Shown: positions 10,574 to 51,827 of the stretch, one piece after another
Layout: the number at the start of each line of letters is the position of its first letter
Position numbering within the stretch: the first letter of the stretch is position 1
Assembly (NCBI RefSeq): GCF_963921235.1
Contig: NC_086108.1
Coordinates: 85,686,001-85,750,000 of the forward strand
DNA: 64,000 bases
Direction: 5' to 3'
Origin: Mobula hypostoma
Taxonomy: Eukaryota
The notes under the pieces: model-generated
The model's input: the letters and a program-made list of their open reading frames with translations, nothing else
The model's database searches: none
Told to the model about the DNA's origin: nothing
Program-made: the position numbers and the translations under genes

Positions 10574-11187
10574 ATTAGATTACATTAGATTATGAGGACA
10601 CTCGGTCCTCGTTTATTGTCATTTAGAAATGCATGCATTAAAAAATGATACAATGTTCCTCCAGAAAGATATCATAGAAACACAGGACAAACCAAGACTA
10701 AACTGACAAAACTACATAATTATAACATATAGTTACAACAGTGCAAAGCAATACCATAATTTGGTAAAGAGAAGACCATGGGCACGGTAAAAAAAGTCTC
10801 AAGTCCCGATAGCCCCATCATCTCACACAGACGGTAGAAGGGAGAAACTCTCCCTGCCATGAACTCCAAGCGCCGCAAACTTGCCGATGCATTGGAAGCA
10901 CCCAACCGCAGCCGACTCTGAGTCTGTCCGAAAACTTCGAGCCTCCGACCAGCCCTGCGACACCGAGCACCATCTCTGCCGAGTGCTTCGACCCTGCCCC
11001 GGCTGCCGAGCAACAAGCAAGCGGCAGCGAAACAGGCATTTCAGAAGTTTCACCACATGTTCCTCCGTGCTCTCATGTCTGCCTCCATCAAATCAGGATT
11101 GTGCACGGCACCCTACTTGACAGATAACAGATATCATTCACCGGAGTGGCTGCTGCAAGCTGCGTCGCACTGCCGCCATCTTCTCCT
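10574..11187 (-). mobile_element. Non-autonomous retroelement, copy 1 (YY1-motif head, AATAAA + hairpin + TAATC tail)
   Basis: Highly similar to 39606-40278. Minus-strand 5' end AGGAGAAGATGGCGGC; 3' end AATAAA-CGAGGAC-CGAGT-GTCCTC-ATAATCTAATGTAATCTAAT. Inserted in a CR1 3' remnant. Confidence 0.8.
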
Positions 11188-11929: not shown

Positions 11930-12175
11930 GGAGACACAAGTGACTGCTGATGCAGGAATCTGGAACAAAAGAAAGCTTCTCTGTTGCAAGCAACACACAC
12001 ACAAAATGCTGGAGGAACTCAGCAGGTCAGGCAGCATCTATGGAAAGGAATAATCAATGTTTCAGACTTGATGAAGGGTCTTGGCCTGAAAGGTTGACTC
12101 TTCATTCCTTTCCATTGTTGCTGTCTGACCTGCTGTGTGGCTCTGGATCTCCAGCATCTTCAGACTCTCTTGTGG
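11930..12175. mobile_element. Older fold-back Penelope pLTR mini-element
   Basis: Inverted arms (ACACAAG..CAGCAGGTCAGGCAGCA vs TGCTGTCTGACCTGCTG..CTTGTG) around TTGATGAAGGGTCTTGGCCTGAAAG at 12068-12092. Confidence 0.7.
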
Positions 12176-13306
12176 TTTTCTGTTGTAATAATCTTGCAGT
12201 ATTTGGCCATGTTGTGGACCTCATTTGCTGCTTCCACTGCATGAAATGATGAAATAGGAGGCCAGAGCCAGTGATAACACGGTAGAAGCCAGAGGGAATA
12301 TGCGACCAGCAACTGGAAATAAGGCCAATGATGTCAAGAGCCTAGATTAATGTGGGACCAAGCCAGCAGCAGGTTGGTGTATAATCTAGACTGCTTTATA
12401 AAACACTTACACATAAGAGAGCTCTTACATTCAAATTCCAACCGAGGGCACAATTTTACAGAGTTATGCAAAATCACAGTCATCGTGACCCTCAAAATGC
12501 TGAATTAAATGTGGATAATTCTGCGAATGTGGCCCAGGCAGGGTTAAGAATACAGTTGCTCATTGTGGGGATAAACATTTATACAACTAACTGGTGCAAG
12601 AGATGTACAATGAGAGATTGTGGAATACAGATTTGACCTTAAGAACATTTGTTCTGTCAAGGCATGATTGTCAGCATTCCATTCATATGTTCATGGCATT
12701 CCTCATGTTGTATTGTTTGCAATACATTAGGTAAATAATTAAAGTAAAAGTGATCAAAGCATGAACATGGACATGAACGAGAATCAGATTGATGGTAGTT
12801 TATTGTGTGCGTTCTGTGATATCATTGGTAACACATTTCAAAGGCACATCCACCCTCAGATTTAATGTCAGTAAACTAAAATCTATATGGATCAGTTCTT
12901 CAAATAACAGAAGCCATATTGCGATGAGATTTGATATTGTTTCATCCCCAAGGAGATGAGCAGGACTAGGTGGTTCAGTGGCACCCTTTGCTAAGAAACC
13001 ACATGTAAATTGACATCTGAAGAGCACTGCATTTTTGGGAACGTTTACTGGCACGTGGTGTAGGTGATGGGAGTGCACAGTTTAAGTTTGCTGGAAGAAT
13101 GCAGGAAAGGCAGGCCATGACATTAATCAAAATACAATTCTTCTTTAATACAGGTGCTGCTATTTTGGAGCTCAGCGCTTTGGCTGACGTCTTTAGTTAA
13201 CCTTTCATGGCTAAACATGTATTAAGCTGCAAAAGGAAGAATTCCTACTCTCCCACCCCAGCAAGTGCCAAATAAAGGGGTTCATCTACCTATATAACTG
13301 ATAGGT

Positions 13307-28799: not shown

Positions 28800-29580
28800 T
28801 GGTGTATGGCATCAGAGGTAATTTATTGGGATGGATTGAAATTTGTTTGGAAATTGACTAGCAAAAAGAAATACAGAATAAATGGATAACTTCTATGGTA
28901 ACTGCAGGGAAGAGTACTTGTACCGTAAATCAATGATATGAAGGAGGGAGCAAAATGTAATATTTCGAAACCGGCCATGGATATAAAACTGGGTGAGATT
29001 GTGAATTGCATAGAAGCTGCAGAGGGTGACTTAAAAATATTAGTGGATGGAAACTATGTGGTCGATGCAGTATATCATAGAGAAATGTGAAGTTGCTCAC
29101 CTCGGTAGTAAAAACTGAAAATGACAACATGTTACTTAAATAAAGAATATTTATGATAAGAGGCACCTTGGCAACAAGTGTAGATAGGGAGGTGAAAAAC
29201 AGGTATCATGTGCTTGCCCTCAAGATCAGGACACAAGACATAGACATTGAGGTTACGTGGCACCCTGAGAAAACACTGCTGAAGCTACTTTTAGACAGTT
29301 GAGTGCAGTTCTACTTGCCACCCTCAGGGATAATGTGGTTCCATTTGGGAATTACAGTGAAGATTCATTAGGAGTTGATGATTTGGACTACTTTAGATAT
29401 GGGGAGAGATTGAATATTCTGGGCTTGTTTTCCCTTGTGTGAAGGAGGGTGAGAGATGACCTGATAAAGGCATACTCTGTTATTAGAGCTGTGGATAGGG
29501 TAGATAGATAATGGTAGGTTATAAATACAAAGGGGGATGACAGTAGTTTATAAATACAAAGGGGCATGGTTTATGGTGTA
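28800..29580 (+). mobile_element. Old CR1 RT fragment (resumes at 30910-31130 after the Rex1 insertion)
   Basis: Degenerate CR1 C-terminal blocks. 'ggggcatggttta' on the left joins 'tttaaggggat' on the right. Confidence 0.55.
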
Positions 29581-30909
29581 ATTAATGCCTCTAGTAAACT
29601 ACAGAACCTAGGCTTCTGAACCTCCCTCTACAACTAGACCTTTGACTTTCTAACCAGAAGACCACAATCTGTGCGGATTGGAAACGACATCTCACCTCAC
29701 AGACAGTTAACACCGGCGCTCCGCAAGATGTGTGCTTAGCCCACTATTCTAATCTTTTTACACCCATGGCTGTGTGGCTCGGCATAGCTCAAACAACATC
29801 TGTAAATTTGCTGATGATACAACCACTGTTGGCAGAATTTCAGATGGCGATGAAAGGGCGTACAGGAGTGAGATAAATCAGTTCATGGGTGGTGTAGCAG
29901 CAACAACCTTGCACTCAACCTCAGCAAGACCAAAGAGCAGATTGTGGACTTCAGGAAGGGCAAGACGAAGGAATACAAACCAATTCTCAGAGAGGGATCA
30001 GAATGGAGAGAGTGAGTGTCAATATCTTTGAGGACCTAACCTGGATGCAACATATTGATGCAGCTATAAGGACAGCAAGATAGTGACTATTTTTCTTTCG
30101 GAGTTTGAGGAGATTTTGTTTGTCAATTAAAACACTCAAAAACTTCTACAAATGTACCGTGGAGAGCATTCTGACTGGCTGCGTCAGAGTCTGGTATGGT
30201 GGGGGTGGGGGGAGGCAACTGCACACGATGGAAGTAAGTTGCAGAAACTTGACAATTAGTCACACTCACAACACGCTGGAGGAACTCAGCGGGTCGGGCA
30301 GCATCCGTGGAAAAGATCGGTTGACGTTTCGGGCCGGAACCCTTGTCCTGATGAAGGGTTCCGGCTCGAAACGTCGACTCATCGTTTCCGCAGATGCTGC
30401 CCAACCTGCTGAGTTCCTCTAGCGTGTTGTGAGTGTTGCTTTGACCCCAGCATCTGCAGATTATTTTGTGCTGACAATTAGTCAGTTCTATCATGGCCAG
30501 CCTCTGCAGCATCCAAGGCTTCTTCAAGGAGTGATGCCTTAGGAAGGCAGCATCCATCATTAAGGATCCCCACCACCCAGGATATGCTCTCTTCTCATTG
30601 TTACCATCACGAAGGAGGTACAGAAGGGACACACAGAGCGATTCAGGAACAGCTTCTTCCCCTCTGCCATCCAATTTCTAAATGAACATTGAACCCAGGA
30701 ACACTACATCACTACTACTTTATTTCTGTTATTCTGCATTACTTATTTTAACTTGTCTATTTATTAGCCATATATATATATAGACAATATAACTCTTAGC
30801 TCAGCTTTTTACTCTATATTTATTTATTATGTATTTCGTTGTATTGCGGATGTAAAATTAACAAAATTTCATGACATATGCCGGTGATATTAAAACTGAT
30901 TCTGATTCT
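29581..30909 (+). mobile_element. Rex1/Babar LINE, 5'-truncated
   Basis: ICKFADDTT..GRISDGDERAYRSEI and NFYKCTVESILTGC..WYG. (TCTGAT)n tail at ~30897-30909. Confidence 0.85.
30263..30471 (+). mobile_element. 209-bp fold-back Penelope-pLTR mini-element with hammerhead-like core and 13-bp TSD
   Basis: TGACAATTAGTCA at 30250-30262 and 30472-30484. ~82-bp inverted arms at 30263-30344 and 30354-30435. CTGATGA-A-GGG-TTCCGG-CTC-GAAAC at 30348-30372. Confidence 0.85.
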
Positions 30910-33084
30910 TTTTAAGGGGATTTCAGGGGAAAGTATTTTGTATACAGAGTTTTTGATATACAGACCTTGTTGCCAGGAAAGGTTGTGAAATCAAATGCAA
31001 TCACTAAATTTAAGAGATTGAATGGATGAGGCAATCCCAATAGGTGCAAATAGGATTAATGTAAATGGACAACGGGTTTGGTGTGGACATAATGGGCTGG
31101 AAGACCTGTTTCTATGCTGTACAACTCATTCTGTTTCTTTAAGGAGTGGTGAACCTGTGAAATTCATGTCACAGAAGGCTATAGAGACCAAGCCACTGAA
31201 AATACCTGAGGTAAATTTGGAGGTGCAAGGCATTATGGGATATGGGGGGAATGTTTAGGCATAGGTATTGAAGTAGGTGATCAACCATGATCATATTGGG
31301 AGGTACAGCAGGCTTTATTGGCTGAATGGCTGCCTTCTGTTCATATTTTTGATACATTTCTGTTTTCTTCCTTCAGCTTGACCTCTCTTCATGTACTTGC
31401 AAAGGCAGTTTAAACTGCTCTCCACAATACCCACAAATTCTGTCTCACAGCAGTTTTCAGTCATTGTTTTCACTGTTAGAGACTTTTGGAACCTGGAAAT
31501 CTAGGTTCCTATCTTGATCCTCCCTCCAACTTGGAAACTGCAGGGAGGCTATGTTAGGATTCCATTAACCGAAGTTGGAAGAATAGTGAGTAATATTCAG
31601 TGTTGCCCAATTAACCCAGCTGGCATGTCCCTGCATCCAAATCACAAAAAAAGTCTGCATTTAATCAGGATCATCAAATAGCTGGTTTGCCTGCTTCAAT
31701 AAAGATATTAGAGCAAACTTTCATTCTGCAGTGTGTCTCGTCATAAAGGCCATTATGATTTTCTTCTGTGCCCTACAATTTCATATGTTTTATTGAGAGC
31801 AGAGGAACTAAGAAATGTTGAATTAAAGTGGGTGAATTAGAACAAAATTGGATACTGAGAGAGAGAGAAAGGAAGATTGAATTACTTGAGAAAAAGAAAC
31901 GCAAATGACAAGTAAGAAAAATTGTAAAATCTCAAACAGTAATTAGTGCAAAAATGAGGGTGAATAGTTTAAATTGTTCCCTTTCTGAACTGGAAAGGTT
32001 GATTGCTATTGAAATAAAATTATCATATCATTGAAATGGTACTTCTTTTTCCTTCCTAGTCCATTTCTAACATTCTGTGGTGAGATTACTGGCAAATTAC
32101 TGTGTAGAACGGAGTACAAAAAGGGGCCTAAACTTGGGAAGCTGCTTGTGTAAAGCGAGTCATATTAGTTGATCAGCAGATTTTGAAGATTCACATTTCT
32201 TGGTCTATCTTTTAACCTCCTGCACTTGCTGGTTTGTGAATGGAAAAATTAGTGATGCATTATTAACCCAGCTCTCAGCTCTATCTGTCCAGTAAGGTTT
32301 GGCTAATTATGCATATGCATGAGTCTATCCATGATTTAGCTTCCATGACTTGATTTAGGTGGCGCAGTTTCGATGGGCCAAATGGTCTAATTCTGATCCT
32401 ATATGATGTGGTGAAGCCACAGTGTGGATGATTCTGCTGAACCTCCTCTGGTGGTAAATGTGAATAGTCCTTCAAATCTCCAGATGATTTGAAGTTTAAA
32501 AAAGAGTGTGCAGATTACCTGCATGTAACAAGAGCTAAGACTGTAAAAATACCCTTGCTATAGTACATTTTCATTCAAGAAGGACAGAAGTTCTGGAGGA
32601 AATATGTATTTGAAACTAGCTCTGATCAAATTTCCCCACCACCTCCTCGAGCAATTAGAGATGGATAATAAATGTAGCTTTGCCTGTATTTCCCAGGTCC
32701 CAAAAGCAAATTTATGAAAATGATTGAAATACTTCAGACAATGTTTTTGAGTGGGCTTATGCAAATAGATCAACAGATACCTGCAGCATTGAATAATACC
32801 TTATGAGCAATCTACATCTTAGTGTGAATTTGAGACTGCTTAATTTGTTATTACCTTAATTACATGACAATATTGATAATGATGTTGTAATGTTTTGATT
32901 TCTGCTTTTTGATGAAGTGGTTATTTGCATTTCTCCTCTTTAGATTAGTATTTGAACATAATGGATGGTTGTTCCTTAAAATGTGATATGACATTTTAAC
33001 TTTCAGTTTACCACTATGCTCAATTTTACTCTTCTCAGAAATCAATGGCCATTATAATCAACTTATTGGCTTTCTAAAGGAAAG

Positions 33085-33639: not shown

Positions 33640-34480
33640 ATAAGACCTTAAGACACAGCTGAATTAGACCATTTGGACTACTGAGTCTGTCCTTCCACTC
33701 AATCACGGTTGATTTATTTTCTCTTCTCAACCTCATTCTCCTGTTTTCTCCCTGTAACCCCTTGAAGCCCTTATTAATAAAAAAAAACATATCAATCTCT
33801 GGTTTAAATATACTTGATGTTTTGACCTCCACAGCTGTTTGTGAGAAATGATTTCCATAGATTCACCACCCTTTGGCTAAGTCTCCATTCTAAAGGGATG
33901 TCCTAGATTCTCTCACTACCGGAACATTTTCTTCATGTCCTTTCTACCTAGGCCTTTCAATTTTCAATAGGCTTCAATGAATTCCCCCATCATCCTTCCA
34001 AGCTCCGTAACTACAGTCCTAAAGTCATCAAATGCTCATGATTATGTTAATGCTTTCATCCCTGGGATAATTCTCATAAATATCCTCTGGTCTCTCCCCA
34101 ATGCCAACACATCCTTTCTTAGATATAGGGCACAAAACTGCCCACAATACTCCAAATATGGTCTAATCGACACCTTATACTTGGCACTGCATCTTTACTT
34201 TTAAATCATTAGCCCTTTCAATGTGAATATTAATATTGCATTTGCTTTCCTTACTATCGACTCAACCTTTAGGAGTTCCTTCACTAGGATTTCCTCCAAT
34301 TTCTGAATTCTCTCCCCATTGAGCATATAGTCTATGCCTTTATATCTTCTACCAAAGTGCATGAGCATACACCTCCCTCTGTTGTTTTAAACCTACCGTT
34401 TTGCCCATTCTCCCAAACTATCAAATTGACTACCTGCTTCCTAGACTACATGCCCCTCCACCTAACTTTGTATCATCAAC
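33640..34480 (-). mobile_element. CR1 3' fragment
   Basis: CR1 3' UTR (ataagacc..agctgaattag.ccatt) and ORF 33590..33832 remnant. Confidence 0.75.
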
Positions 34481-34840
34481 TGATTTATATTATTGGCTAC
34501 ATTACTTGTCATTTCCTCCCCCCCCCACCTTTCTGCCTTTCCCAACCGGGTTGCCTCTGCCCACTGTCCCTCCTTTATCTGGTTCCACATATGACTTCCT
34601 TCTCCCCTTCTCTCACCTGGATCTTTATGGCCATTATCTCCCATCTTGCCTGGTTCCACCTGTCACCCACCAGCCCCTGTCTCACCTTTCCATCCTACCT
34701 CTTTATATTGGTGATCTTTCTTCTATGGTCTCAGTGCTGATTCCAGGCCTTGACTCAAAACATTGACCATCACTTTACTTCCACAGATACTGCTTGACCC
34801 ATTGAGTTCTTCCAGCAGTTTGCATTTAATTTGCTCTAGT
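34480..34840 (+). mobile_element. Degenerate Penelope pLTR
   Basis: Pyrimidine-rich pLTR body followed by 'gctgattccaggccttgactcaaaacattgac..acagatactgcttgacccattgagttcttccagca'. Confidence 0.55.
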
Positions 34841-34929: not shown

Positions 34930-35772
34930 AAACACAAGAGATACTACACATGCTGGAAATCTTGAGCAATGCACAAAATGCTGGAGGAGCACAGCAAGTC
35001 AAGTGAAGGGGAATAAACAGCGATTTTTTTCAATCCTAGACCCTTCATCAGGACTGGAAAAAGAAGGGGGCAGAAGCGAGAATGAGAAAGTGAGGGGGGT
35101 GCCGAAGAGGAAAGAGTACAAGCTGGCAGGTGATAGGCGAAACCAGGTGAGCGGGAAACTCCCAGTGGCTACCCATTTCAATTCAACTTGCAATTCCCAT
35201 TCTGACATATCTATCCATAGCTTCCTACTGCCATGATGAGGCCAAACTCAAACTGGAGGAGCAACACCTCGTATTCTGCCTGCGTAGCCTCCAATCTCAT
35301 GGAATGAACATTGTTTTCCAACTTCCAGTAATTTTCTCTCCACCCTCATTCTCTCTTTTTCTATCTTTCATTTTGGTTACCCTCTCAACCCTTCTCTTCT
35401 CCTCACTTGTCCAACACCTCCCTCTGATTCCCCTCCTCCTTCCCATTCTTCCATGATCCACTATCCTGTCCTTCAGCCCTTTATCTCTTCCACCTATCTC
35501 CTCCTTCCTGCTTATTACATTCTCCTTCTCCATTCACCCACTTTCTCCTCACCTGGTCTTACCTGTCACTTGCCAGCTTGTACTCATTCCCTCTTTCCCC
35601 GACGTAGCTTATTCTGGCTGCTGATCCCTTTCTTTCCAGTCTTGATGAAAGGTCTTGGCTCAAGCTGTCGACTATTTATTCCTTTCCAAAGATGCTGCCT
35701 GACCTGCTGAGTTCCTTTGGCATTTTGTGTGCTTTGCTCAGAATTTCCAGTATCTGCAAAACCTCTTCTGCT
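34930..35772 (+). mobile_element. Penelope-like element 3' end: inverted pLTR + GIY-YIG C-terminus + pLTR
   Basis: LPVATHFN..SHSDISIH (35159) and LEEQHLVFCLRSLQSHGMNI (35253) resemble the PLE endonuclease end. The termini are mutually inverted, with hammerhead-like cores at 35021-35052 (-) and 35641-35672 (+). Confidence 0.85.
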
Positions 35773-36107
35773 TGTTCTCTAACCCAGTGACACATTTGCC
35801 CATAATTTCCTGTTGCACATACTGAATGGATAACTTGTGACAATCTCTAAAAGTGCTGGAGAAACATGTCGCAATAGCTATTGAAAAATATCCATTCTCC
35901 TTAGTGGTCTCTTTTGCTGAACAAAGCTTACAAGTATTTAATATGTCTTCAGTCTGACCAAAGTAGTAGTATTGCCTTCCTTATTTCATATATGGCCATG
36001 GTACTCAGTTCTATGCTCTCTTGCGAGAATTTGATATATTAGTTGTTTCATGAGCTGGACAGCGTCACCCATTACGGCCATTTGCTCTTTGCATGGAATT
36101 GTTGATA

Positions 36108-37743
36108 CAGGTTTCCCCACCATCTGAAGGTAGAGCGTTCCTATGAAATGGTTCATAAGCCAGAATGTCATAAAGCGAAGAAGCAGTTACCATTTATATG
36201 GAAAAATTTGTGAGCGTTCGCAGACCCAAAAATAACCTACCACATCATGCCAAATAACACATAAAACTTAAAATAACAGTAACATATAGTAAAAGCAAGA
36301 ATGATATGATAAATGCACAGCCTATATAAAGTAGAAATACTTGTCTACAATTGTTGCCGCACTGTTCTCCGTAGCGAAAATCTCATGCAAGCACTTTCGG
36401 CAGAAACACGGCGCAAGTGCTCTCGGCAAAAACACTCTCCAGTAACCTTTAAGCTATAAAGCTGCCAAATCATACCAAATAACACATAAAAATACACAGC
36501 CTATAGAAAGTAGAAATAATGTATGTACAGTGTAGTATCACTTATCGGAATCCAGAAGACAGCGCCGAGCACACTGTTGATGGTGTGTTAGGCTGAGTCG
36601 TCAGAGGTTGGGGTGGTGCAGTGGCCCCCACCCTCCAGGCTGGGGAACAATACCAATCCGCGAAGCATGCAGCGGTACAGCGGTGGCCGCGACGCACCCA
36701 GCACATCTTTAAGAAAAAAGCCGAAATAAACAAGCTAATTAATGAGGTGCTGCCCAGCACATAAATGTTGGCCCAGATCAGAGGCGAGCGTAGCCTCTGA
36801 TCTGGGCCGACATTTACATGCCAGGCGGCACCTAATTAATTAGCTTGTTTATTTCGGCATTTTTTCTTAAAGATATGCTGGGTGAGTCCCGGCTACTGCT
36901 GCATTCTCCGCGGCAATGTATCGGTCCGCGGCCCGGTAGTTGGGGTGGTGGGACACTGAGGTGTCATCTCATCGTAGTCTGTTTCCATCAGGGCAGGCAG
37001 GTCATCTTCTTCTATGTCTGCCTGCCTCGATGTCGAAGGTCCAGGTTGGTCGTCTGCTGTGGCTGATGTGGAAGGTTTGCTTGACTGCTTAGCCTCGCAC
37101 ATTTTTCTATCATACAGTTCTTTGTAAGCACTCAAACTATCCTGCAGATATGCCCTAAACCGACGTATCCTTTCAAAATTAAAGTGGTACTTTATCATTG
37201 CAGCGAAAATCTCATGCAGTTGCTTTACGTTCAGTTCCTGGACGACTTCACTTTCGGTCCGTTCGCTACTGCATTTGGTTTCGATTGTTATCCTTTTCTC
37301 TTCCAATTGCATCAGCTCTTCATCTATCAGTTCTTGGTCATGGGATGCCAAAACCTCTTCAACATCATCTTCGTCAACTTCCACAAGCCAAACTCACTTT
37401 GTCCTTACTTCGTTCACCACGATCGAAACGCTTAATTATGTCTAGTTTTACGTTAAGTGTAACACCCTTACGAGCTCTTTTAGGCTTTTCCGATACCTGA
37501 GAACTCATCTTGCTAACGGCTGCTCACAGGCACGTGCTTACGCAATGCCGGCGAGAATACCGTTCCAAATTCGGGGGAGGAGCGGCTGCTTGGGGCGCAC
37601 ACTGCCTTTTATCGCGTGCTGCTTTTTTCGTAACAGTGAAAACACCTTCTGTTAGCGAAAACAGGTAACTAATATAACCAATGTAGGTCTTTCGTAACAG
37701 TGAGGTTTCGTAAAGTGAACGTTCGAAAAGTGGATGACACCTG
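36108..37743 (-). mobile_element. Tigger/pogo transposon, internally deleted (no DDE domain)
   Basis: TA|CAGG...CCTG|TA ends. The minus strand has SEKPKRARKGVTLNVKLDIIKRFDRGE (CENP-B-type HTH) joined to the acidic tail VDEDDVEEVLASHDQELIDEELMQLEE (ORF 36893..37384). Confidence 0.9.
36678..36900. repeat. Long imperfect palindrome inside the Tigger
   Basis: Arms of ~105-110 bp around a 7-nt loop GAGCGTA (36786-36792), e.g. GGCCCAGATCAGAGGC / GCCTCTGATCTGGGCC. Confidence 0.9.
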
Positions 37744-39605: not shown

Positions 39606-40278
39606 ATTAGATTATGAGGACACTCAGTCCTCGTTTATTGTCATTTAGAAATGCATGCATTAAAAAATGATACAATGTTCCTCCAGAATGATATCACAGA
39701 AACACAGGACAAACCAAGACTAAAACTGACAAAACCACATAATTGTAGCATATAGTTACAACAGTGCAAACCAATACCGTAATTTGATAAAGAGCAGACC
39801 ATGGGCACCATAAAAAAAAGTCTCAAAGTCCCGATAGCCTCATCATCTCACGCAGACAGTAGAAGGGAGAAACTCTCCCTGCCATGAACCTCCAAGCGCC
39901 GCAAACTTGCCGATGCAGCACCATTGGAAGCACCCGACCGCAGCGGACTCTGAGTCCGTCCGAAAACTTCTAGCCTCCGACCCAGCCCCTCCGACACAGC
40001 CTCTCCGAGCACCATCCTCTGCTGAGCGCTTCGACCCTGCCCCGGCTGCCAAGCAACAAGCAAAGCTGAGGACTCGGGGCCTTCCCCTCCGGAGATTCTG
40101 GATCACACAGTAGCAGCAGCAGCGAAACAGGCATTTCAGAAGTTTCACCAGATGTTCCTCTGTGCTCTCATGTCTGTCTCCATCAAATCAGGATTGTGCA
40201 CGGCACCCTACTTGACAAATAACAGACATCACCACCGGAGTGGCTGCTGCGAGCTGCGTTGCGCCGCCATCTTCTCCT
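39606..40278 (-). mobile_element. Non-autonomous retroelement, copy 2 (longer version of 10574-11187)
   Basis: Same AAGATGGCGGC head and AATAAA / GAGGAC-n5-GTCCTC / TAATC tail. Retains a ~50-bp block missing from copy 1. Confidence 0.8.
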
Positions 40279-42005: not shown

Positions 42006-44977
42006 TTTTACGCCTTGAATGCAATTTCATGAAGCACAGCTCGCTGGATACAATTAAATATTCCCGTTTTAGCTTGATACAGCTGAGAATCACAACTGCT
42101 TTCAAGGTCTGTACAGTTAATAAAGATGCCTTAATAGAATAGAATAATCTATTGCTACTTAAATCTGATGGAAACAATGCCAACTGTGGCTGTACTTCTC
42201 GCTGGCCCTCATAGGAAATTTGGCTGCTGATCAGAGGTACAAGTGTGTTTCAGAAAACGTGGTTTTCACTCACTATACCTACTATCTTGGTGGCAAATGT
42301 ACAGTCTCTAGTAAATGAAATCGAAGATCTTAGAGCTAGCGTGCTGTATCAGAGCGATATTAGGACTACTTGCGTCCTTTGTTTCAAGGAATCCTGGTTA
42401 ACCCCTTCCTTACCGGACACTGCAATCCAGTTTGACGAGTTTACTATACACCATCAAGATAGGATTGTCGAGTCTCTCAAAAGCAGAGATGGAGGTGTAT
42501 GCCTCATGATCAACTCCCGGTGCACAGATCTATTAATGTTGTTCCAGTTCTGCTTATCCGTCCTGGAATATCTCACGATTAAGTGCTGTTCATTTTACCT
42601 GCTGAGGGAGATTTCTGCAATCACTTTGGTAGCTGTGTACATTGAACTTCAGGCCAATGTCAGACAGGCTCCGGATGATTTGAGCAATGGAGTCAACATG
42701 CACAAAACAGCACACCCTGATTCCTTCACCATCATTTTGGAGGATTTTAATCGGGCCAACTTGAAAAAGGTCACTAAATAATTACCATCAACAAATCACT
42801 TGGAGCAATGGAAGCTACAAGTAGCAAAGGAAGCAACACACTGGATTGTTGTTACACTAAGATCAACAGTGCTTACTGTGCTATTCCACGCCCACACTTT
42901 GGAAAGTCTGATCACCTGGCTGTACTTCTACTCCCCGAGTATAGGCAGAGACTGAAGACTGCAGCACCAATAGTGAGGACCAGGAAGGTATGGAGAAGGA
43001 AGGCTCAGGAGAGCTTACAGGGCCATGTTGAATTGGTGGAGTGGACTATGTTCAGGGATTCATCTTCGAATCTGGATGAAAATGCCACAGTTGTTACTGA
43101 CTTCATTAAAACCGGTGTGGATGAGTGTTTGCCTATGAAAACTTGCTGTACGTTCCCAAACCAAAAGCCGTGGATGAACCAGGAGGTTCATCACCTGCTG
43201 TGGGCTACATCTGTGGCATTTAAGTCTGGCAACCCAGGTCTGCACAAGAAGACCAGGAATGACTTACGGAGGGCTATTTCAAGAGCAAAGAAACAATTCA
43301 GAGTGAAGTTGGAGGTGACGTTGGATGCACATCGACTCTGGCAGGGTTTGCAGGACATTACTTGCTGACAGTAATGCCTCACTACCAGATGAGCTCAATG
43401 CCGTCAATGCCCGCTTTGAAAGGGAGAACATAACTACAGCTGTGAAGATCCCTGCTGCAGCTGGTGACCTTGTGATCTCTGTCCTGGAGGCCGATGTCTT
43501 TCAGGAGAGTGAACCCTTGCAAGGCGACAGGCCCTGATGGAGTACCTGGTAAGGCTCTGAAAACTTGTGTCAACCAACCGGCAGGAGTATTCAAGGACAC
43601 TTTCAATCTCTCACTGGTATGGTCAGAAGTTCCCACCTGCTTCAAAAAGGCAACAATTATACCAGTGCCTAAGAAGAGTAGTGTGAGCTGCCTTAATGAC
43701 CATCACCCAGTAGCATGCAGATCTACAGTGATTGAAATCATTGAGAAGTTGGTCATGGCTAGAATGAACTCCTGCCTCAGCAGGGACCAGGACCCACTAC
43801 TATTTGACTATCGCCACAATAGATCTACAACAGATGAAATTTCAATGTCTCTTCATACAGCCTTAGACCACCTGGACAATACAAACACCAATGTCAAGAT
43901 GCTATTTGTTGACTATAGTTCAGCATTTAACACCATCATTCCCTCAGTCCTAATTGATAAGCTGCAGAATCTGGGCCTCTGCAATTGGATACTCCACTTC
44001 CTAACTGGAAGATCACAATCTATGTGGATTGGTGATAATATCTCTTCTTCACTGATGATCAACTCCAGAGCACCTCGGGCGTGTGTTTAGCCCACTGCTC
44101 TACTCCCTCAATACCTATGACTGTGTGGATATGTATAGCTCAAATACTACTCATAATTTTGCTAATGATTCAAGCATTATTAATAGAATCTCAGATGGTG
44201 ATGAGAGGGCGTACAGGAACAAGATATACCAGCTAGTTGAGTGGTGTCGCAGCGACAACCTTGCACTCAAAGTCAGAAAGATGAAAGGGCTGATGGTGGA
44301 CTTCTGGAAGTCTGAGATTAGGGAACACAAACCAGTCCTGGTTCCTGGTTCTCTGAGGATCTAACCTGGTTGCAACATATCAATGCAGCTATAAAGAAGT
44401 ACAAGACAGTGGCTATATTTCATTTGGAGTTTGAAGAGATTTGCTTTGTCATCAAAAATGCTCAAATTTCTATAGATGTACCATAAAGAGCATTCTGACA
44501 GGCTGCATCACTGTCTGGTATGGGGGTGGGGGGTGTTTACTGCACAAGATCATAAAAAGCTATAGGAAATTGTAAAATAAGTCAGCTCCATCTGGGTACT
44601 AGTTTCCATAGTATCCAAGACATCTTCAGGAAGCGGTGCCCCAGAAAGGCGATGCCCCATTAGCCTGGGAGTGCTCTCTTCTCATTGTTACCATCAGGAA
44701 GTAAGTACAGAAGCTAGGAGGTACTCATTCAACGATTCAGGAACAGCTTCTTCTCCTCTGCCATATGATTCCTAAATGGACATTGAACCCATGAACACCA
44801 CCTCTTTTTTTTAATATATATTATTTCTGTTGTTGCAGTATTTATATAATCTATTTAATATACATATATACACTTACTGTTTTATTTATTTATTTTTTCA
44901 TTCCTGTCGTGTATTGCATTGTACTGCTGCTGCTAAGTTAACAAATTTCATGACACATGCCAATGCTTCTGATTCTG
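42006..44977 (+). mobile_element. Near-full-length degenerate Rex1/Babar LINE (APE + RT)
   Basis: ORFs 42245..42781 (ILVANVQSL..ESWL..DFN), 42808..43368 (FGKSDH..PNQKPW), 43494..44090 ([17 protein letters not shown]) and 44083..44364. (TCTGAT)n tail. Confidence 0.9.
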
Positions 44978-50590: not shown

Positions 50591-51827
50591 TGGTTGCTAT
50601 GTCAAAGTTCAATGTAAATTTATTGTCAAAGTACATATATGTCACCATATACAACCCTGAGACTCATTTTCTTGTGGGGCACACCTAATAATTCCATAGT
50701 AGAATCAATGAAGGACAGCAGTTATGATACTACAAATTCCACATTTCCTCCCCTCCTGCACGTTATCCTCCATCCAGGCAACTTGTAGCCATCCACCCCC
50801 ATCCCCAGTACTCAATGCAGTCGAATGCTGAGTTTTATGGGGATATATATTTGGGAAATTATTCAGGAACAACAACTTCCCATCTGTCGTCAGATTTCTG
50901 AGTGGTTCCTGAATCTATGGGCATTACATAGTTATTCTTTTTTTTTGGTGTGCTATTTATTTATTTATTTTATACTTTATGATAATTTAATGTCATTGCA
51001 GTGGAATGCTGCCGCAGATCAATGAATTTCATGTAAGGCAAGTTGGTGATAATGAATCTGATCTGAAGTAACTGCACAAGTTGCAATGTGTAACTTGTTG
51101 CATTAAGTCTGTGAAAAATACTGTGGTATTTTGGAATAATTTCAATATTTTGATCACCTGATTTTATAAATAAGTGAAATGAAATTAAAATCCTTATTAA
51201 AACTGATCCTGTCCTGATGATATCATTGATACAAAAATTAAGGGGTTCTTCTACCTTATCTAAACCAAACATTCATATCAATAATACTTTCAAACTCTCA
51301 GTTGTTATTTCACGTAGTCTCTAATTTATTGCTCTTTATTTTAATCATGCACAATAAATTCATTTAAAATGTGTCGGTGAGCAATCAATGAAGCACTATT
51401 CTGCTCCTCAAACACACCAAGGATTTCCATTTCAGCAAAGACATACTTTGCTGGAGGCACTCAGCTGGTTGTGTGACATCTGTGGGGAAACCCCTGCATC
51501 ATAGCAATGGTTTCTATTTTCAGGCCGCTCTTTGGGGCACATCATCACAGGCTTTTTAAAATGCCATTTCTGCAAGTGTGGACGCTGAAAGCTAATTGAC
51601 TGGGGTTTTGCAAAATCAAAATCTGCTCTGCCATACATTGTGTACATGTGAAGCTCGAGGGCTGAGGCACTGTCCATCTTATTTCAAGTGGTTTAACTTG
51701 AAATAAGTTGGTTTTGGAACAAGGGATCAGATTATATTGAATTCAACAATTTCAGATATTCTAGTTTGTGTCAGAACTGATAATCTAGCTGTAATTTTAA
51801 CTCTATTCCTTCTTCCTCTGGTCCAAA

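Follow-up and report, generated by a model that had tools for sequence, protein, structure and literature searches.

A 209-base hairpin with a hammerhead motif at its hinge is a very short, decaying Penelope-like insertion

What is the 209-base hairpin that interrupts a LINE in the window (the whole stretch of 64,000 nucleotides analysed here), and does the hammerhead motif at its hinge mark a propagating family or the point at which a single insertion was cut short? A sequence-only reading had offered two answers, namely a retrozyme-like non-autonomous unit moved by a Penelope reverse transcriptase (RT) or an extreme 5'-truncated and inverted insertion. We find that the hairpin is a very short, decaying Penelope-like insertion in head-to-head arrangement, which supports the second of these. 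The features of the locus are as follows.

29645..30882, + strand: decayed 3' part of the host LINE, interrupted by the insertion (self-BLAST to 43996-44961, and translation)
30250..30262, + strand: left copy of the 13-bp target-site duplication (TSD), single copy at the paralogous LINE site
30263..30344, - strand: antisense arm, a tail-less, 5'-truncated Penelope 3' end of 82 nt
30345..30471, + strand: sense arm, a 5'-truncated Penelope 3' end of 127 nt (hinge 30344/30345)
30345..30353, + strand: hairpin loop of 9 nt, the extra 5' reach of the sense arm beyond the antisense arm
30345..30378, + strand: minimal type-I hammerhead motif (sequence read against the features given in excerpts of PMC4209133)
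30436..30471, + strand: one-sided tail of 36 nt, continuing the right arm past its paired part
30472..30484, + strand: right copy of the TSD, with its junction in an identical contig of run X4 (record 14)

The boundaries of the unit are set by TGACAATTAGTCA, which stands at 30250-30262 and at 30472-30484 as a perfect 13-bp TSD (13/13 identical) and has just these 2 occurrences within the 64-kb window. The probability of such a match by chance, with boundary slop allowed, is ~8e-6; we also drew 300 random pairs of positions, none of which matched that score. When the unit and one TSD copy are removed, the flanks are collinear with the paralogous LINE at 44471-44700 over a single copy of the motif; therefore, the 13-mer is a true target duplication. 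The TSD is also quasi-palindromic (10/13), as had been noted from the sequence, and this gives symmetric nick contexts, with GTCA on both strands; since no such symmetry is present at the second fold-back of the window (11990-12175), no target preference is claimed. At 12% divergence, a perfect 13-bp TSD survives with a probability of 0.18. For the right junction there is an identical contig in run X4, which comes from the same organism. A contig of organism B (record 22), whose divergence is roughly 2% by word share, spans the left junction with 2 differences and 22 element letters, fewer than our 31-letter rule requires, and at that length it suggests that the insertion predates the split from organism B.

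The placement of the unit inside a LINE also holds. The left flank carries an RT-type motif, and an RVT_1 match at 43476-44087 lies directly upstream of, and overlaps, the paralogous LINE copy, so that by its sequence the host reads as a LINE with an RT. It may belong to the Rex1 (Rex1/Babar) clade, the name that the sequence-only reading gave it. A 29-bp tandem duplication lies just upstream of the host LINE, at 29507-29564.

Between the two TSD copies, one abundant repeat is present twice, each time as a 5'-truncated 3' end; the two stand head to head, the antisense one of 82 nt and the sense one of 127 nt. The paired parts (30263-30344 and 30354-30435) form 82 bp with 10 differences around the 9-nt loop, as the sequence-only reading had described; the right arm, though, extends 36 nt beyond the pairing, which that description had missed. 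At the hinge, the antisense arm end ...CCCTT is joined to GTCCTGATG. The antisense arm stops at the position that matches A30354; thus, it is missing CUGAUG and has no hammerhead core. In the isolated sense arm, CAGCATCTGCAGA of the tail pairs back on 30387-30399. The predicted RNA fold of the whole unit has a free energy of -164.4 kcal/mol (z -17), and 0 of 200 shuffles were as stable.

The differences between the arms look like decay. Eight of the 10 (over 82 positions) are transitions, 6 of these eight in CpG context, and none of the 10 is compensatory; the arm divergence of 12% is compatible with neutral decay, and positions 30390 and 30420 deviate from 88% and 86% of the family depth (run X4), respectively. 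On the + strand, 6 of the 8 transitions appear as a G-U pair, leaving 6 G-U pairs versus 4 mismatches, a weak lean towards a retained RNA hairpin (one-sided p ~0.14 by our own arithmetic). At 30314 the arms differ by A/C, and this position varies across the whole family, with C at 22% of the depth in X4 and 82% in X9, which hints that the two arms came from two template RNAs.

Could the motif at the hinge act as a ribozyme? Judged by its sequence, the start of the sense arm holds a complete minimal (dimer-type) hammerhead motif. It has a stem I of 3 bp (30345-47 with 30376-78), where the sequence-only reading had found none that was convincing, followed by the CUGAUGA core (30348-54), which does begin inside the hairpin loop, and a bulged A30355. 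The stem II described earlier is present, and we correct it to 4 pairs, of which two are G-U, between 30356-59 and 30364-67. The hammerhead GAAA is at 30368-71, a palindromic C-G at 15.2/16.2 replaces helix III, and the predicted cut falls after C30375. All the elements of a minimal hammerhead are therefore found in the stretch: the core CUGANGA/GAAA/UH, a bulge after position 9, G10.1-C11.1, the palindromic 15.2-16.2, and stems I and II. The minimal hammerheads of Penelope-like elements (PLEs), as described in excerpts of PMC4209133, likewise have a conserved core, an extra base between 9 and 10.1, G10.1-C11.1, a palindromic 15.2-16.2, no helix III, and a short stem I; what sets the focal motif apart from them is its stem II of 4 bp with two G-U pairs, its stem I of 3 bp, its burial in an 82-bp fold-back, and an antisense arm that is coreless. 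The same excerpts note, for metazoan PLEs, motif pairs whose members lie on opposite strands with 100-700 bp between them, as well as solo motifs that derive from truncated PLEs.

The folding calculations point away from activity. Inside the unit, stems I and II would cost 42.9 kcal/mol and their pair probabilities round to 0, which agrees with the earlier expectation that the fold-back would sequester the core; in the isolated sense arm they would cost 5.4 kcal/mol, with pair probabilities of <=0.02, and the helix III self-duplex is predicted to contribute only -3.1 kcal/mol. Hence, the hammerhead is predicted to be locked within the hairpin rather than in the active (dimeric) fold, and we infer that it would be inactive in vivo. 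An Rfam search of 29500-31200, a check that had been proposed for the motif, gave no hammerhead match at E<=10, the remainder being 4 sub-threshold miRNA-hairpin matches and 1 chance intron match. Across 4 decayed copies, RNAalifold returned no hammerhead consensus, with a two-sided change in 1 of 16 pairs. Relative to the predicted cut after 30375, the antisense arm ends 22 nt before it and the sense arm begins 31 nt upstream of it; the template RNA was thus uncut. Among Xenopus retrozyme dimers, 8 of 9 showed no cleavage. Minimal hammerheads require dimers and cleave weakly in vitro, according to excerpts of PMC4209133.

To place the unit in its family, we searched the window with BLAST and found its repeat at five other loci: ~369-418, 11988-12144, 34779-34816, 34972-35758, and 51450-51485. 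Two of the copies are themselves head to head:

11990..12175, no strand assigned: second short head-to-head copy, of an older subfamily (hinge 12063/12064)
34930..35773, no strand assigned: longer head-to-head copy, with the antisense arm to ~35158 and a sense GIY-YIG C-terminal remnant at 35159-35318

The short copy has a degraded 13-bp TSD (11977-11989 and 12176-12188, 11/13), and 3 of 300 random pairs score as high; this insertion appears to lie just past the point where an older member of the family begins (~11943-11975). The longer copy continues past its antisense arm with a broken (frameshifted) frame, a pyrimidine-rich 3' UTR, and a sense copy of the repeat with a decayed hammerhead and a tail; both of its arms are tailed, and we looked for a TSD around it and found none. 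An older sense copy (34288-34835) lies directly upstream of it, its pyrimidine-rich 3' UTR long and its hammerhead decayed, and copies of the family cluster in this part of the window. Other repeats of the window include a ~320-bp imperfect palindrome at 36626-36945 (78% self-complementary), beside a 166-aa frame on the - strand (36893-37393) that may resemble the end of a Tigger/pogo transposase, and two copies of one repeat at 10584-11187 and 39606-40278 that are 84% identical across ~670 bp.

The hinges of the three head-to-head copies in the window all differ (30344/45, 12063/64, and ~35158/59). A hinge junction shared between copies with different TSDs, which had been put forward as the mark of a propagating family, is therefore not what the window holds, in a small sample of three. 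These 3/3 different hinges favour independent truncations over a propagating retrozyme (n=3). In 3 of the 4 aligned antisense arms, the tail-less ends fall within ~7 nt of each other. In the two short fold-backs, only 3 and 4 nt separate the start of the sense arm from the hammerhead core, something that chance may not explain.

We also mapped contigs from four runs (organisms A-D) on the repeat. The family is clearly very abundant: the summed depth of the repeat is 1.7e5 to 2.0e6 (X4), versus ~10 for the junction contig of the locus, depth not being copy number. At least 283 contigs in X4 and at least 306 in X6 diverge near 30470 into unrelated flanks, and this pile of contig ends places the 3' end of the family there. 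Among the joints listed for the contigs of the other organisms are two fold-back-like ones, 30290>30436 and 30313>30392 (run X10), and among the pieces listed, from contigs of 4 of 24 runs, none bridges the focal hinge. The diagnostic stretch of the focal subfamily (30314) has a depth of 1.8e5-5.7e5 in organisms A-C and 5.0e3 in D, which suggests a lineage-restricted expansion of that subfamily. Pattern scans of metagenome contigs, prokaryote genomes, and viral contigs gave 0 matches, as expected for a vertebrate repeat, and this result is silent on copy number.

Which element supplied the repeat can be read from the longer copy. Its frame pieces at 35159-35227 and 35232-35318 are 78% and 72% identical, respectively, to the C-terminus of the database protein P0009, and the endonuclease remnant runs into a copy that is 72% identical to the focal sense arm (120 nt, BLAST). 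The Penelope link proposed by the sequence-only reading is thereby borne out by DNA homology, through a remnant whose subfamily is older than that of the focal unit. P0009 has a weak Pfam match to GIY-YIG (E 0.0021, below the curated cut-off); a CxxC lies between its VIY and YIG motifs, and the linker before its GIY-YIG core reads C-x3-C-x2-C. The protein is also 43% identical to the C-terminus of P0013, an RT protein of 893 aa. The repeat thus makes up the 3' terminal region belonging to an element that carries an RT along with a GIY-YIG endonuclease (CCHH) at its C-terminus, as in EN+ elements. Excerpts of PMC8557442 describe the linker zinc finger (CX2-5CxxC) as present in Neptune and absent from Penelope and Poseidon. 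By those published criteria, which formally leave room for Nematis, the sequence makes the parent look like a C-terminal-endonuclease PLE of Neptune type. The comparison drew on 12 HMMER matches to the remnant, 7 of them used in tblastn and 8 in Pfam; P0001-3 and P0006 were set aside because repeats drove the match or no stretch was aligned. A word-index protein search with the GIY-YIG remnant gave no match, 3 of the 4 window fragments had no match in Pfam, and a PDB search gave 1 chance match (E 1.2). The database proteins P0004, P0007, and P0010 join this Penelope endonuclease end to sequence that is VKOR-like, ATP synthase c-like, or RNase H-like; these fusions are probably gene-prediction artefacts from the abundant repeat.

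Altogether, the unit is very probably a one-off, abortive insertion made by the RT-endonuclease of an autonomous Neptune-type PLE. Specifically, the GIY-YIG nuclease would have nicked both strands, 13 bp apart, and each 3'-OH would have primed reverse transcription close to the 3' end of the PLE RNA, with the outer RT start giving the tailed 127-nt arm and the inner start the tail-less 82-nt arm. Both cDNAs would then have stopped early, near the hammerhead, and joined head to head, and repair would have filled the 13-bp duplication. The hammerhead would be a passenger from the terminal repeat of the parent, uncut in the template and unfoldable in the hairpin, in a copy that has presumably been decaying neutrally since. 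The recurrent tail-less ends (3 of 4 antisense arms) fit a discrete inner RT start of this kind.

The insertion pattern is already published, and the focal locus is an ordinary, clean example of it. According to excerpts of PMC8557442, PLEs often have an inverted 5'-truncated copy next to their 5' end, and a tail of 30-40 bp is often single-ended; at the focal unit, an inverted 5'-truncated copy adjoins the 5' end, the 36-nt tail is one-sided, and a 13-bp TSD surrounds the whole insert, in line with the variable-length TSDs of PLEs. In inserts of the Pen2a_Av type (Adineta vaga), as described in excerpts of PMC3846280, head-to-head is the commonest arrangement, with a 31-bp tail and TSDs of 8-10 bp. 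The focal unit resembles these inserts in its adjacent inverted 5'-truncated copy, its one-sided tail (36 versus 31 bp), its head-to-head junction, and the single TSD round the whole insert (13 bp versus 8-10 bp), as far as the excerpts of PMC3846280 and PMC8557442 go; it differs from them in that its two copies retain just 82 and 127 nt, with no ORF, leaving a plain hairpin. An anole PLE (PAc, from Anolis carolinensis) cuts and extends both strands in vitro; its RT begins at two sites, which mark off the tail, and its main template is uncut RNA (excerpts of PMC11167929). The focal insertion, known from sequence alone, is like PAc in its AT-rich target and its uncut template and, on our reading, in the cutting and extension of both strands and in its tail-delimiting RT starts; PAc is a Poseidon, whereas the focal parent looks Neptune-type by its linker zinc finger.

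A minor share of the probability of such a one-off PLE insertion goes to a snap-back variant, in which one cDNA stops at the hammerhead, folds over the 9-nt loop, and copies itself as far as the tail boundary. Excerpts of PMC3846280 take palindromic inverted junctions in rotifer PLEs as self-priming, and here the arm ends lie only 9 nt apart. If the parent had CUGACGA and one base was lost, a 3-nt GTC match would be usable at the hinge, and a contig of X9 does extend the antisense arm with CGTCAG (parent CUGACGA); the hinge at 12063/64 likewise lies at a short near-match, and a short inverted match at each of these hinges may account for sense arms that start near the core. However, the snap-back leaves the recurrent tail-less antisense stop (3 of 4 arms) unexplained, and it predicts arms that were identical at birth, whereas the family-wide variant at 30314 hints at two template RNAs. 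A propagating fold-back family, retrozyme- or MITE-like, in which PLE RT would re-insert transcripts of the whole 209-nt unit and the hinge would stay fixed at the hammerhead, appears improbable. For mobilisation in trans, a PLE needs no more than its terminal repeats in cis (excerpts of PMC3846280), animal retrozymes are pLTR-derived, and the sense arm begins at the 5' edge of the hammerhead in both short fold-backs. Against this, the hinges of the window copies differ (n=3), the core is predicted to be sequestered in the 82-bp hairpin, and that duplex would also bury the 3' stem-loop beside the RT start sites. Retrozyme unit boundaries are set by ribozyme cleavage, and the focal unit ends away from the predicted cleavage site. 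Non-LTR retrozymes are head-to-tail tandems with at least 2 complete hammerheads, and animal retrozymes have units of 51-972 bp and occur in one sampled cartilaginous fish (excerpts of bioRxiv 10.64898/2026.07.22.740005). The focal unit is, like the animal retrozymes described there, non-coding and pLTR-derived with a type-I hammerhead, and its length falls in their range; in contrast to their tandems, it has one sequestered core in head-to-head arms, and its minus strand is coreless at the hinge. The first answer of the sequence-only reading is thus not upheld. Equally doubtful is the further proposal that a folded hammerhead halts the RT or forms the 5' end of a short pLTR RNA, with ribozyme-hinged fold-backs of ~200 bp arising repeatedly as a result and some of them re-mobilising as a fixed-hinge head-to-head non-autonomous family; the sense-arm starts 3-4 nt before the core lend it thin support. 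Among the papers listed, judged by title and start of abstract and with subscription papers and Repbase/Dfam outside this scope, we found no fixed-hinge PLE fold-back family, and no paper that joins Penelope transposable elements with both cartilaginous fish and stingray, or Neptune and Penelope with both ribozymes and skate; the supplements of PMC4209133 and bioRxiv 10.64898/2026.07.22.740005 may list the focal family.

The great stability of the fold might instead reflect a host-exapted hairpin RNA under selection, miRNA-like or a source of endo-siRNA, which we consider very unlikely. Such a hairpin would accord with the 6 G-U pairs versus 4 mismatches on the + strand, with the probable presence of the left junction in organism B, and with miRNA-precursor matches of 37.8 and 37.2 bits, which stand against cut-offs of 85 and 120, are generic, and point to unrelated families. 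Moreover, none of the 10 differences between the arms is compensatory, the LINE around the unit is dead, and an arm divergence of 12% is what neutral decay could leave. A DNA-transposon MITE or an assembly artefact, suggested by a short non-coding unit with long inverted arms, is scarcely credible: the arms are asymmetric (by the 36-nt tail), match the 3' end of a retroelement, and are linked to a GIY-YIG remnant, the 10 arm differences speak against a duplicated read, and the right junction recurs in an identical contig from this organism, the left one probably in a relative.

We note that, as a single locus, the hairpin carries little weight, and that it adds one data point on how PLEs build inverted structures. 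For annotation it is a caution, since such hairpins mimic MITEs and miRNA precursors. With so great a number of copies in these fishes, a survey of short fold-backs could tell two-ended priming from snap-back; it could also show whether the two arms derive from different RNAs and whether truncations gather at the hammerhead.
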